Made by a program: the position numbers and the translations under genes. This document shows positions 3 through 61,950 of a stretch of 64,000 nt of DNA, one piece after another; the first letter of the stretch is position 1; each line of letters starts with the position of its first letter. This DNA is from Candidatus Latescibacterota bacterium. GTDB lineage: Bacteria > Latescibacterota > UBA2968 > UBA8231. Location of the stretch: assembly GCA_965215195.1 (NCBI GenBank), contig CBDCDC010000002.1:4576001-4640000 (forward strand), read 5' to 3'. The notes below the pieces were generated by a model. That model saw only the letters and a program-made list of their open reading frames with translations, was not told where the DNA came from and made no database searches.

Positions 3-503
3 CTCGTGCGGCAGGAGGCGTGCTTTTGGCCCTGTACGCCGCACGGGGTCTTGCAGATCCTCAGCCGCAGCGGGATTGAGGTAGCCGGCCAGCACGTGGT
101 CGTGGTCGGCCGGAGCATCCTCGTGGGACGGCCCGTAGCCATCTTGCTGGGGCACAAGGCGGCCGGCGCCAATGCCACGGTGACTTTGTGTCACACTGGC
201 ACGCACGACCTCGGGCACTTTACGCGCCAAGCGGACATCCTAGTGGTAGCGGCTGGGTTTCCCCGCGGGATCACGGCGGATATGGTCAAAGAGGGCGCCG
301 TGGTAATCGACGTGGGCATCAACCAAGTTGACGACCCCTCGCGCGAACGCGGCTGGCGGCTCGTCGGCGATGTGGACTACCAACAGGTGCGTCCGAAAGC
401 CCGTGCGATCACGCCCGTGCCCAACGGGGTCGGGCCGATGACGATCGCGCTGTTGCTCTACAACACCGTGTGGGCGGCCAAGCGGCAGGTGGGGCTGGAG
501 TAG
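3..503 (+). CDS. folD: Bifunctional methylenetetrahydrofolate dehydrogenase/cyclohydrolase (5'-partial)
   Basis: [28 protein letters not shown] and [12 protein letters not shown] motifs; runs off the window start. Confidence 0.97.
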
Positions 504-506
504 AGT
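356..506 (+). repeat. folD 3' end, copy 1 (in the intact gene)
   Basis: 151 bp matching 4726-4876 with 2 synonymous mismatches; partial copy at 3799-3857. Confidence 0.97.
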
Positions 507-521
507 ACAAAGAGCTTAGAT

Positions 522-59708: not shown

Positions 59709-60761
59709 TCACTCGGCAGTCATCTCATCCAACAGGCGCGTGAACTCGGCCAGCTCCGCCACCTGTATGGCGGCGCGTAGCAAGGCTTGGAGTTGCTCCA
59801 CCTGTTCAATACCGGCCAAGCACCCCGACAACGCCTTAGCCGCATCCGCATCAAACCGAATCGCCAAGGCTTCTTGGATACTTTGCCGAAGCCCCTGCTC
59901 ACGCCCTTGCTCTAGCCCCTGCTCCAGTCCTTGCTCCAGTCCTTGCTCCAGTCCTTGCTCCAGTCCTTGCTCCAGTCCTTGCTCCAGTCCTTGCTCTAGC
60001 CCCTGTTCCAGCCCTTGCTCCAGCCCTTGCTCTAGCCCCTGTTCCAGCCCCTGTTCCAGCCCTTGCTTCAGCCCCTGCTTCAGTGCTCGCTTGCGCAGAG
60101 ATTCAAGTAACGGAAACTCAGTCATGATCTCCTCCGATATAAGAGAAAAAACGGTTGATTCCTCGCACACCAACGAACTCAACATCCCCATGTGTGCCAA
60201 CATACTATGCTTAACGGCACGAGATACAGCTAACTCCTCGGTCGTCTCCACACACCGACGCAACCACGCATCCACATCCATCCCTTCAGGACGCCCCATC
60301 AGCGGCGTAAACGGCAATACTCCTACATTGCCCGACGACAAATGCGCCATCCCATCCAACGCAATCAAACGGATCACCTTATAGCGCAGCACCACTTCAA
60401 AGCCCGCATGCTCTTGAATGTAATGCCCCGGATCGCGCCGCCCGGCCTCGGGACGCAGGTAGATCACGTAGGAAAACAGGGGCAAGCCGTACTCGGCAAT
60501 GCAGTGTCCCATATAGCCGGCCATGCGGCGCGGCATGGGCACGGCCGTGCTATCGGTAGTTTGAAACTCGCAATGCACTAACGCTTTCTCACCTTGGATT
60601 TGCACGTGCAGTAGGCTGTCCATCACCTGCATCTCGACGGTGGGTTGCTCCGGGTTGAGCATATCCAGTAGCTGCACCTGTGAATGCCCCAGCAGGAAGG
60701 TCAGAAAGCCCTGCGGATGAGTGCTGAGCAGGGATTTGGAAACGCTGTCAAATTCGGCCAT
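59709..60761 (-). CDS. Rpn/YhgA-like PD-(D/E)xK nuclease family protein with EQGL repeat tail
   Basis: FDSVSK.LL, DSLL, HCEFQ, RRMAGY, VIYL, LPFTPLM. Confidence 0.8.
   Translation of the reverse strand: MAEFDSVSKSLLSTHPQGFLTFLLGHSQVQLLDMLNPEQPTVEMQVMDSLLHVQIQGEKALVHCEFQTTDSTAVPMPRRMAGYMGHCIAEYGLPLFSYVIYLRPEAGRRDPGHYIQEHAGFEVVLRYKVIRLIALDGMAHLSSGNVGVLPFTPLMGRPEGMDVDAWLRRCVETTEELAVSRAVKHSMLAHMGMLSSLVCEESTVFSLISEEIMTEFPLLESLRKRALKQGLKQGLEQGLEQGLEQGLEQGLEQGLEQGLEQGLEQGLEQGLEQGLEQGLEQGLEQGREQGLRQSIQEALAIRFDADAAKALSGCLAGIEQVEQLQALLRAAIQVAELAEFTRLLDEMTAE
59889..60080 (-). repeat. 12-bp tandem repeat x16 encoding (E/K)QGL
   Basis: 16 units counted; six consecutive identical cagtccttgctc. Confidence 0.95.
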
Positions 60762-61053
60762 CGGTCCGTTCTCCTGAGAAGCGTTCTTAAAACTCGCGTC
60801 GGGCGACAGGTGTATTCGTGGCCGCGGACCACGGCGAAATTTTAAGACGGCTTCCTTGAGTACCCGACCGTAGGCCAACGGTGCGGTCGCGCCTAAAACG
60901 GGTGGCGCGAGGCAGCATCCCTTCGGCTTTGCTCAGGACAGGCTCATACCGCTGCTACTGTCGTGTACTAAGGATGGCTTCTAAGGAGTGGACGCGATGT
61001 AGAGAAATATATCCGATTGGCATACCAAGACAAAGGGCATAACCTGACGATTT

Positions 61054-61950
61054 TTAATCGCCATCCCGCCGCTCCTCGCGGAAGAGCACGCGGATGAAGA
61101 CGATGCTCATAGCCAGCAAAAAGAGCAGCAGAATGAGTGCCGCGGCCGCACCCTTGCCGAGCCGCAGGTGCTCGAAGGCGATGCGATACACCGTAATGGG
61201 TACTACCTGCGTGGCCTTAGCTGGGCCGCCCTCAGTCATTATGAAAATCAGCGCAAAGTCGTTGACCATCCAGATGGTGGCGAAGAGAAAGACCACTCCG
61301 ATCACGTGTTTGAGCTGCGGCAGAGTAACGTGGAAGAAGCGCTCGAACACATTGGCTCCATCGACGTGCGCGGCCTCGTATAGCTCGGCGGAAACCCCCT
61401 GCAAACCGGCCAGCAGCATGATGGTGATATAGGGCATGAAGCGCCAAACATTGGCCACCACCACCGCGCCGAGGGCCGCGTCTGGCTGCGCCAGCCAAGG
61501 GACATTGGCGTCGATGAAGCCGAGGCTCAGGAGCGTATGATTGACCAGCCCGAAGCTGTCGTGGAAGAGCCAGCGCCACATATAGCCGGTTACGACCGGG
61601 GCGATGGCCCAAGGGATGAGCAAAAAGCCGGTAAAGACCGGCCGATACTTGCGGATCTCGTTAAAAATCAACGCCATCCCCAAGCCCAAGGCGAAGGCCA
61701 CCGGCAAGGAGTAGAGCGTAAAGCGCACCGAACTCCAGATGCTGTTGACAAAGGTGCGGCTGCCGAGGAGCTTGGCGTAGTGGGTCAGGCCGATGAATTC
61801 GTCGCCGGCCCCGCGGAAGAGCTTCACCTTGTACAGGCTCATCACGAGATTGCTGAACACCGGGTAGAGGATGACCACCACCAAGACCAGCATGGCCGGC
61901 AACAAGAAATAGTACGGCGTCAGATGTTTGCGCCGCGCACTAGTAATCAC
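61054..61950 (-). CDS. Carbohydrate ABC transporter permease (MalF-like)
   Basis: FIGL..Y, IPWAI, ELYEAAHVDGA, TEGGP. Confidence 0.93.
   Translation of the reverse strand: MITSARRKHLTPYYFLLPAMLVLVVVILYPVFSNLVMSLYKVKLFRGAGDEFIGLTHYAKLLGSRTFVNSIWSSVRFTLYSLPVAFALGLGMALIFNEIRKYRPVFTGFLLIPWAIAPVVTGYMWRWLFHDSFGLVNHTLLSLGFIDANVPWLAQPDAALGAVVVANVWRFMPYITIMLLAGLQGVSAELYEAAHVDGANVFERFFHVTLPQLKHVIGVVFLFATIWMVNDFALIFIMTEGGPAKATQVVPITVYRIAFEHLRLGKGAAAALILLLFLLAMSIVFIRVLFREERRDGD

Follow-up and report, generated by a model that had tools for sequence, protein, structure and literature searches.

Duplicated ends of housekeeping genes flank integrase-free cargo across a Candidatus Latescibacterota genome

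Genomic islands whose integrases act at the 3′ ends of genes bring a replacement tail with them, and the literature on ICESt and the cis-mobilizable elements (CIMEs) contains the same picture of an intact gene accompanied by a displaced tail. Four other bodies of work come closest to the arrangements described here: insertion with long target duplication, reportedly described by Nobusato and colleagues in 2000; the C-terminal displacement of Rhs proteins, said to have been described by Jackson in 2009; homology-facilitated illegitimate recombination (HFIR), reportedly established by experiment in transformable species by de Vries and Wackernagel in 2002, Prudhomme and colleagues in 2002, and Meier and Wackernagel in 2003; and the minimal mobile elements of Neisseria, which are attributed to Saunders and Snyder in 2002. 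Here we compare these systems with a 64,000-nt stretch of DNA (hereafter the window; positions 4576001-4640000 of contig C2) from a Candidatus Latescibacterota genome (G000; 6.13 Mb in two contigs, 60% GC, 95% complete with 8.5% 'contamination'). In this window, accessory DNA lies between an intact gene and a same-orientation copy of its tail at four unrelated loci, namely folD, glgP, a PhyH-family dioxygenase gene and an ATP-binding cassette (ABC) permease gene. An earlier note, made from the letters of the window alone, had taken these loci for products of a general, repeated, integrase-free mechanism, an interpretation that as a whole proves largely right. The sequencing runs that hold the window sequence carry sponge or marine metagenome labels; in sponge symbionts, defence and toxin-antitoxin (TA) genes are very abundant, turn over fast and are in many cases sited without any mobile-element gene.

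In the portion of their paper available to us, Furuta, Abe and Kobayashi (2010; PMC2853133) describe restriction-modification (RM) inserts that are flanked by direct repeats of 46-423 bp, lack mobility genes and are matched by empty sites in relatives. The repeats often span start or stop sites, the neighbouring gene stays intact, and the mechanism is regarded in that portion as unknown, perhaps tied to double-strand breaks. The available part of Kirchberger et al. (2017; PMC5361080) proposes HFIR, anchored in the conserved portion of the gene, for the sequential displacement of the ends of type VI secretion system (T6SS) effectors; for arrays of orphaned Rhs 3′ regions it cites an equivalent proposal. 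The phenomenon thus has precedents; judging from these excerpts, HFIR displacement of gene 3′ ends had already been proposed for T6SS and Rhs loci. Similarly, in the part at hand of a further source (PMC3787668), the minimal mobile elements appear as cassettes exchanged between conserved flanks. For housekeeping genes no report of the present pattern turned up in searches that were not aimed at that question.

At folD, an array begins with the intact gene (3..503, + strand; its C-terminal 166 codons, the window starting inside the gene; PF02882, E 6e-62), which is followed by two same-orientation orphan tails interleaved with two layers of cargo. Next to the intact tail repeat (356-506, +; repeat family D17, from alignment) lies a gene for a single-chain Type ISP RM enzyme (522..3677, +; PF18135, E 1e-86, with an N6_Mtase domain), then a 59-nt orphan tail (3799..3857, +), a two-gene module on the opposite strand (3883..4571, −) and a 151-nt orphan tail (4726..4876, +). 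The two long copies are identical at 149 of 151 positions, with both mismatches at third codon positions, and end 3 nt past the TAG. The two-gene module, in which a 99-aa open reading frame (ORF; 4272-4571) without any family match precedes a gene for an HTH_3 protein (3883-4263; E 4e-6), looks like a HigBA-type TA pair with its toxin assigned by gene order only. It is 94% identical to a folD-adjacent cassette in the related genomes G009 and G010. By its position nearest the intact gene, the RM cassette would be the youngest folD layer. As a separate observation, about 104 nt just upstream of the 151-nt relic (4619-4722) recur at several other sites in the genome at 83-92% identity (e.g. C2:3197578-3197691), and similar stretches are present in at least eight congeners; they may be a promoter or leader of the HigBA-like cassette family, or a small mobile repeat.

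The folD array abuts a second one, built on the convergent glgP gene. Between the 151-nt folD relic and a 129-nt orphan glgP tail (6842..6970, −) lies a gene for a protein with leucine-rich repeats (LRR) and a leishmanolysin-like (M8) domain (4943..6784, +; Pfam), the oldest layer of the folD/glgP hotspot. The glgP relic is followed by a Fic/DOC gene (7041..7734, +; Pfam) and then by the intact glgP-type alpha-glucan phosphorylase gene (7745..10309, −; DUF3417 and Phosphorylase domains), whose tail repeat (7741-7869) is 91.5% identical to the orphan and ends 4 nt past the stop. As a correction to the earlier observation, this Fic gene is truncated and keeps about 231 of 391 codons relative to its counterpart in genome G026.

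The PhyH locus carries a decayed relic (about 43754..43810, −), in which three collinear exact blocks of 14, 19 and 16 nt are separated by deletions of 12 and 11 nt; it was recovered independently by the genome-wide screen described below. It touches a gene for a CreD-like membrane protein (42378..43754, +), which is the convergent neighbour of PhyH in empty-site genomes, and is separated from the intact dioxygenase gene (49645..50529, −; PF05721, E 1e-32) by cargo coding for an M10-like metallopeptidase fragment and three paralogous NHL/FlgD_ig proteins with sorting tails (43983..49579, +). A second copy of the NHL cluster stands at C2:3710919-3716022 (95% identical to window positions 44421-46282 and 80% to 46153-49619), and in G004, G012, G013 and G031 such a cluster is found on the opposite side of the CreD-like gene.

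At the fourth locus, the genes for permease 1 (61054-61950) and a solute-binding protein (61940-63208) lie on the minus strand (61054..63208; Pfam), and the permease 1 tail (61052-61317) is repeated as a 257-nt orphan (59372..59628, −), the two copies differing by two indel patches and ending 2 nt past the stop. Proximal to the intact gene is a cargo gene for an Rpn-like protein (59709..60878, −) with a putative PD-(D/E)XK nuclease domain at one end and a helical C-terminus; a tandem repeat with a 12-nt unit lies within the gene. Distal to the relic are two ankyrin-repeat genes, the older cargo of this site (57583-58113 and 58252-59289, together 57583..59289, −), and then the gene for permease 2 (56659..57498, −; BPD_transp_1 in Pfam).

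Across the four loci, the repeats measure 59-266 nt and the cargo 0.77-5.8 kb, and every orphan copy lies downstream of its parent gene in that gene's own orientation, the well-kept ones stopping 2-4 nt past the stop codon. All four repeat pairs are therefore where the earlier note had placed them and oriented as it had claimed. Its description of the cargo as defence/TA and eukaryote-like genes is likewise upheld by the Pfam assignments used throughout the window, which comprise Type ISP RM, HTH, LRR/M8-like, Fic, ankyrin and NHL/FlgD_ig families.

The same anatomy recurs throughout the genome. In a comparison of the genome with itself, 1090 local matches at distances of 200-30,000 nt were direct and 91 inverted. 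More specifically, we drew probes from 3550 well-scoring genes, taking 200 nt (+10) at either end of each gene and 210 nt from its middle, and retained probes with at most six genomic matches and partners no more than 20 kb away and outside other strong genes. Tail probes found a direct partner downstream for 67 genes and upstream for 16, with 0-1 inverted, head probes gave the mirror image (34 direct upstream, 14 direct downstream, 0-2 inverted), and probes from the middle of genes found next to nothing (five downstream, four upstream, none inverted). Duplication thus hits gene ends and not interiors, and the copies lie outward from the gene in direct orientation. This bears out the generality that the earlier note had claimed, with one correction: the phenomenon is not specific to 3′ ends, since heads mirror tails, although 3′ ends are duplicated about twice as often as 5′ ends. 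Tandem paralogues and shared C-terminal sorting domains were considered as a source of the signal and set aside, as the bias survived the removal of genes whose middle probe also matched locally and of partners inside strong genes: 55 tails remained downstream versus 12 upstream (binomial p 1e-7), and 26 heads upstream versus 12 downstream (p 0.03).

The 55 orphan tails have median values of 66 nt in length (range 22-212), 94% in identity and 1.4 kb in distance from the parent, and 47 of them are without any indel. Several pairs are 100% identical, among them one at C2:4434251 (210 nt) and one at C1:370279 (100 nt). The 55 tail alignments end close to the stop codon, within positions −15 to +10 in 37 cases and at stop +0 to +4 in 14. 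Mismatches between copies fall at codon positions 1, 2 and 3 in the ratio 106/90/202, i.e. 51% at the third (p 6e-13 against one third), and the bias persists among pairs that are at most 5% diverged (11/9/33). Such an excess would result had the two tails acquired much of their divergence as ends of functional genes in separate lineages. A more complex region, C2:1253000-1277100, has the tails of four genes (ends at 1253567, 1257682, 1261498 and 1266958) copied together at 1272176-1273129, along with an 870-nt repeat.

The history of individual sites can be read from relatives, for which we compared 30 genomes over the folD-glgP stretch and 20 congeners each at the permease and CreD/PhyH loci. 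The convergent stops of folD and glgP lie 0-12 nt apart in G003, G004, G008 and G013; in 11 of 20 congeners nothing separates permease 1 from permease 2; and CreD and PhyH abut in nine of 20, where the sequence corresponding to the window's relic is the real PhyH tail. Empty sites thus exist in congeners at all four loci. Occupied sites, in turn, hold different cassettes. The RM gene is present between folD and glgP in G001, G002, G007 and G012, and folD runs contiguously into RM in G001 and G002 but into the TA cassette in G009 and G010, with G010 having the arrangement folD-HTH-glgP. In G009 and G012 the TA cassette is followed by a folD relic of 38-48 nt. G005 retains about 116 nt of the start of the Type ISP RM gene between folD and glgP (L019, positions ~1810-1990), a leftover of deletion, which shows that cassettes also get lost.

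These alleles are informative about the window's own structures. The 59-nt folD relic has, at its 3′ end, the C-terminal allele of G009 and G010, unlike the intact tail, and continues into the same TA cassette as it does in those genomes; the intact tail, for its part, leads into the RM gene, matching G001 and G002. At the permease site, G018 has permease 1, the Rpn-like gene and permease 2 in that order without a relic, and G006 has permease 1, an ankyrin gene and permease 2, so that the window's ABC locus amounts to the G018 allele plus the G006 allele, joined at the permease 1 relic. The window's arrangement with the same junction recurs in G012, whereas G013 has a 181-nt relic, hence a different junction, and other distal cargo; at the CreD/PhyH site of G001, 4.6 kb of cargo accompanies a PhyH relic of 220 nt. 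Relic edges therefore differ within one site (257 versus 181 nt for permease 1; 151, 59 and 38-48 nt for folD), and the relics of differing length and cargo across G001, G009, G012 and G013 appear to be independent junctions. In G002 and G012, RM is joined to TA about 20 nt past the folD stop with no relic at that joint, which indicates that the position of the joint is arbitrary and that a relic is left only when the joint falls inside the gene. The joint between RM and the folD relic in the window lies in an imperfect microhomology, 5 of 6 nt, between the parental sequences, of which the one downstream of RM is known from G001, G002 and G012. In another genome, G032, an approximately 350-nt CreD-like 3′ fragment lies beside PhyH (C44:119500-120732), a full CreD-like gene being present on another contig; the fragment may be the orphan tail of the convergent partner gene.

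One element of the earlier interpretation, which had taken the range of decay among the repeats to suggest events of different ages, needs modification. The third-position enrichment, together with a relic that belongs to a different allele, indicates that part of the divergence predates insertion. The idea of a homology-facilitated route that leaves the target gene intact, in turn, gains support from the folD and permease alleles of the relatives.

The reading that we favour, with a probability of roughly 0.6, is the stacking of alternative hotspot alleles through one crossover in a conserved flanking gene and one illegitimate joint, by HFIR or a circular, Campbell-type variant of it. Junctions between conserved neighbour genes, which have spacers of 0-12 nt or overlapping genes in cassette-free relatives, are insertion hotspots at which different lineages of the genus hold different cassettes as alternative alleles. 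DNA coming in from another lineage would recombine homologously inside the conserved flanking gene, whereas its other end, lying in a cassette without a counterpart in the recipient, would be joined illegitimately; a circle consisting of a gene end and a cassette would yield an identical product by single-crossover integration. With an illegitimate joint made within the recipient's own flanking gene, a complete gene end would arrive together with its cassette, and the resident end would be displaced outward as an orphan. Repeated rounds would then stack cassettes with the youngest beside the intact gene. Of this scheme, the structure, the genome-wide bias, the empty sites, the allele identities and the lack of integrases are direct observations; the order of strand exchange and the route of DNA entry are extrapolated from end products.

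This scheme would account for several features of the data. The repeat edge would fall at the stop or start codon because homology between the alleles ends where the cassettes begin, and these can begin only in the 0-12-nt spacer. The rarity of 5′-end insertions probably reflects their separating a gene from its promoter, and the predominance of RM and TA cargo probably arises because cells that lose it through recombination between the repeats are killed, a stabilising role of addiction modules that we infer from the cargo.

The cargo itself is foreign on two indications, its base composition and its nearest matches. The GC content of most cargo is 0.44-0.56, against 0.60 for the genome, and two genomes of another family, in which glgP is only about 65% identical, have genes that match the DNA of the Fic cassette at 84% and 81% identity; together these point to acquisition from outside. 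Beyond the window, 13 of 30 ORFs scanned from small sites matched a family and 17 did not; the matches include N6_N4 methylase, an Eco57I/TaqI_C type IIG enzyme, NYN, SocA/Panacea, Gp49 (HigB-like) with HTH_37, PIN, Fic, AAA_21, DUF4258 and DUF7689, and two further families are metabolic or membrane-related. Two large inserts, of 13 and 17 kb, contributed nine ORFs, which code for PIN, SNF2-PLD, Eco57I-type methylase, SNF2-NOV_C, GHKL ATPase and metallophosphoesterase proteins and for an OLD-type ATPase with a UvrD helicase, a pair that by our reading is Gabija-like. The cargo consists mostly of RM, TA and defence genes. Restriction and modification genes as such are cargo at folD (Type ISP), C1:806762 and C2:12414, and not at glgP, PhyH, the permease or most TA sites.

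Several observations weigh against stacking by HFIR or its circular variant. Neither a donor-recipient pair nor a recombination intermediate has been observed, and the end product does not distinguish HFIR of linear DNA from integration of a circle. Of the three joints for which parental sequences are available, one shows the imperfect microhomology mentioned above, one (in G013) is blunt and one has nothing evident; Ku was not found in the 95%-complete genome, and the genome does encode ComEC and DprA, which most bacteria possess and which are hence not diagnostic. The third-position excess is modest when set against a rough decay expectation of 0.44 (p 0.004 overall), and it does not reach significance in heads or among the pairs with the greatest divergence. 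The glgP relic has no such bias (mismatches 3/4/3 by codon position) and is further than the intact tail from all 12 congener tails, so that it looks like plain decay and says nothing on origin; at folD and the permease, distance to congeners did not single out either copy as native. As the joint at the glgP stop cuts the Fic gene, the stop-proximal joint is itself illegitimate in origin, which leaves the first arrival of each cassette unexplained. The RM and LRR cassettes both begin exactly 3 nt after the folD stop, a coincidence that we put down to the tiny spacer but that could hint at targeting. Finally, the gene calls were made with a home-made, crude caller, and start codons are uncertain.

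Among the alternatives, the one that survives best, though we still consider it unlikely, is true insertion with long target duplication, in which DNA enters at a double-strand break, possibly provoked by RM or toxin activity, and 40-400 bp of the recipient are copied on both sides. The anatomy given in the available portion of PMC2853133 is the same as here, with repeats of more than 30 bp that span starts or stops, inserts below 20 kb, no mobility genes and a single-copy empty site; much of our cargo is RM or TA, and the perfectly identical repeat pairs would fit equally well. Set against this, the 59-nt folD relic and the intact tail are different alleles, and the relic runs into a cassette of its own just as it does in G009 and G010. 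A duplicated target, moreover, could harmlessly cross the spacer into the neighbouring gene, so that the edge at stop +0 to +4 in 14 of 55 tails is unexpected, as is the third-position excess in young pairs (11/9/33).

A bolder proposal holds that gene termini in this genus are universal docking sites of integrase-free cassette exchange, with conserved gene ends as the 'att site', self-retaining addiction or defence cassettes as the passengers and an illegitimate step that might be promoted by the Rpn-like protein; we view this organised mode of mobility with considerable doubt. Related to it, and improbable on present evidence, is the existence of a new, dedicated integrase-free machinery acting in trans at gene termini, for which an expanded family of Rpn-like nucleases would be the candidate. 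The 389-aa protein at the permease site (59709-60878) has about eight family members in the genome, and a second one (C2:2923224-2924132) is also cargo between a gene and its orphan tail. A homologue, 47% identical, bears the NCBI name 'Rpn family recombination-promoting nuclease/putative transposase', which qualifies the earlier statement that integrases, DDE transposases and terminal inverted repeats are lacking: no integrase and no inverted repeats are present, but one cargo gene has a homologue with a transposase in its name. The Atlas places the protein near DUF4351/DUF2887 clusters, and the N-terminal alpha/beta domain of its AlphaFold2 model (predicted local distance difference test score, pLDDT, 85) matches NucS, R.BspD6I, McrC and SdaI, all of the PD-(D/E)XK class, at Z 5.2-6.8. 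D48, E65 and Q67 are invariant in 30 sequences and may form the PD-(D/E)XK motif.

These structural matches are of the middling range (Z 5-7), and other comparisons do not strengthen them. TIGR01784 scored 20.8 bits on a paralogue, over its C-terminal part only, against a cut-off of 52.1; the protein has no Pfam match, and PF14261 (DUF4351) has none in the genome; a Foldseek search of the model against PDB returned E-values of 0.02 or higher and none at or below 0.001; and phmmer of the protein (P0001) against PDB sequences gave repeat-driven matches only. The start of two different cassettes at the same nucleotide after the folD stop would suit a dedicated machinery, but cassette ends share no motif, just two of the approximately eight Rpn-like copies are at such sites and nothing ties the protein to the joints. 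We accordingly treat it as a lead, and nothing more, for a factor that might promote illegitimate joining. Its gene also contains a 12-nt tandem repeat of at least 16 units (59854-60115), which encodes EQGL repeats; the paralogue at C2:2923224 has far fewer units, so that the repeat number varies between copies.

We consider it very unlikely that the loci are decayed tyrosine-integrase islands or CIME-like elements, with the gene-end repeats as attL and attR and the integrase lost or acting in trans. Islands that target 3′ ends give the same picture, and one integrase gene of the genome (C2:323093), the sole one not shared with congeners, has a pair of 178-nt direct repeats some 1.5 kb away (325048-325225 and 327848-328025); this region, C2:323093-328025, may be a conventional integrase island. 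Nevertheless, the genome has only four PF00589 tyrosine recombinase genes, each of five congeners has three, which look like a conserved set, none of these genes is near the loci, and no resolvase gene was found in the genome. The 39 cargo ORFs beyond the window (30 from small sites and nine from large inserts) have no match to an integrase or transposase family, which extends the earlier claim: the cargo lacks integrases altogether, and the genus has next to none. Many cargos, at 0.4-1.5 kb, are smaller than an integrase gene and hence could never have held one. The target genes number in the dozens, and no common core is evident, as no k-mer is shared by more than four of 31 cargo starts or ends genome-wide, in accordance with the earlier note's impression that repeat edges share no motif; nor were terminal inverted repeats seen at the ends of five cargo stretches examined. 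The 5′ edges of relics, furthermore, vary between genomes at the same site, and 5′ heads are duplicated too. Among other machinery, the template and variable repeats of diversity-generating retroelements were considered and rejected, the only two RVT_1 genes (C2:200788 and C2:298818) being far from all repeat sites.

An assembly artefact, with variants from different strains of a metagenome strung together where they share gene ends, is the least credible alternative: it could draw on the 8.5% 'contamination', on short-read contigs that are interrupted at the folD repeats and so do not reveal the order along a molecule, on depth over the LRR gene (4859-6593) that is roughly half that of its flanks in runs X15 and X18, whose strains differ there, and on a minor X15 contig joining position 324 to 4725, but the same relic architecture occurs in the independently assembled congeners G001, G009, G012 and G013, an X1 contig from a different study than X15 and X18 spans 4847-7535 and so takes in LRR, glgP relic and Fic on one contig, divergence, truncation or indels set the copies apart, and a two-contig, 6.1-Mb assembly would presumably have needed reads much longer than these repeats of 22-370 nt. 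These read data are Logan contigs of four runs placed on positions 1-10400, of which the uncovered parts prove nothing. The X15 joint was also considered as an excision product and rejected; it has 24 nt on one side and 24 foreign letters, and we read it as a co-occurring strain. In X18, depth is also about half over the 3′ half of glgP (segment 4859-8675) compared with the RM gene and the 5′ half of glgP, and co-existing strains seem to differ over 4859-8675 with a boundary inside glgP.

Some further features of the window lie outside the four arrays. Between the PhyH and permease loci are two minus-strand ORFs of about 855 aa (50617-53184 and 54014-56596) without any Pfam family, and between these is a plus-strand ORF (52826-53674) with a Gp49/HigB-like domain in its C-terminal third only. 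At 28403-29586, two adjacent tandem paralogues on the minus strand are 91-94% identical over 300 and 164 nt at a spacing of 566 nt (families D10 and D16).

The genome thus offers an unusually dense and readable record, with at least 55 orphaned tails and 26 orphaned heads, of how cassettes can be gained when a conserved neighbour gene is all there is to hold on to. It suggests that one-sided homologous recombination between alternative hotspot alleles lies, at least partly, behind the insertion with long target duplication of RM systems, for which an explanation has long been missing. Displaced gene ends could also serve as stratigraphic markers with which to order acquisitions and identify donors in pangenomes. 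Should the docking-site proposal be true, this would be a distinct and organised form of gene mobility and not a by-product of recombination.

Set beside the known systems, the loci described here most resemble different ones in different respects. With integrase islands and CIMEs they share, as is generally known of these elements, a displaced gene tail at the far end of the cargo, but the present sites have no integrase, common core or fixed repeat edge and involve many targets. With HFIR they share the combination of one homologous anchor and one illegitimate joint, by which DNA without a counterpart in the recipient is taken up, and the foreign segment is contiguous with its anchor as in donor-type genomes (folD-RM, folD-TA, permease 1-Rpn-like and permease 1-ankyrin). 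The difference is that HFIR was reportedly observed by experiment in transformable laboratory species, whereas here it is deduced from end products in which microhomology is mixed.

The minimal mobile elements, as presented in the available part of PMC3787668, likewise place different whole-gene cassettes between the same two conserved genes without mobility genes, and exchange them via the flanks. They do so, however, by two homologous crossovers that leave no duplicated ends, while the orphans in this genome record one-sided events, in which cargo accumulates and is not exchanged. The Rhs and contact-dependent inhibition (CDI) loci and the T6SS displacement loci, to the extent covered by the accessible part of PMC5361080, come close in their order, i.e. 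an intact gene, cargo and then same-orientation orphan 3′ fragments with the youngest first; there, however, the genes encode polymorphic toxins and the 3′ tip is itself the variable part, as opposed to the unrelated housekeeping genes of constant function (folD, glgP, PhyH and the ABC permease) whose 3′ ends, and elsewhere in the genome 5′ ends, are involved here.

Insertion with long target duplication, as far as the available portion of PMC2853133 describes it, agrees in its cassettes of less than 20 kb without mobility genes, its long direct repeats, its one-copy empty site and its RM cargo. It was recorded there for RM systems, at nine of 760 locus pairs, and read as duplication of the target. 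The genome studied here differs in having dozens of sites, in cargo that also includes TA, Fic, Gabija-like and eukaryote-like genes, and in at least one repeat copy (folD 3799-3857) that is a foreign allele and not a copy of the target. What is new relative to the known anatomy is therefore its genome-wide extent, its use of housekeeping genes at both ends, the breadth of its cargo and a 'duplicated target' that is in fact a foreign allele.

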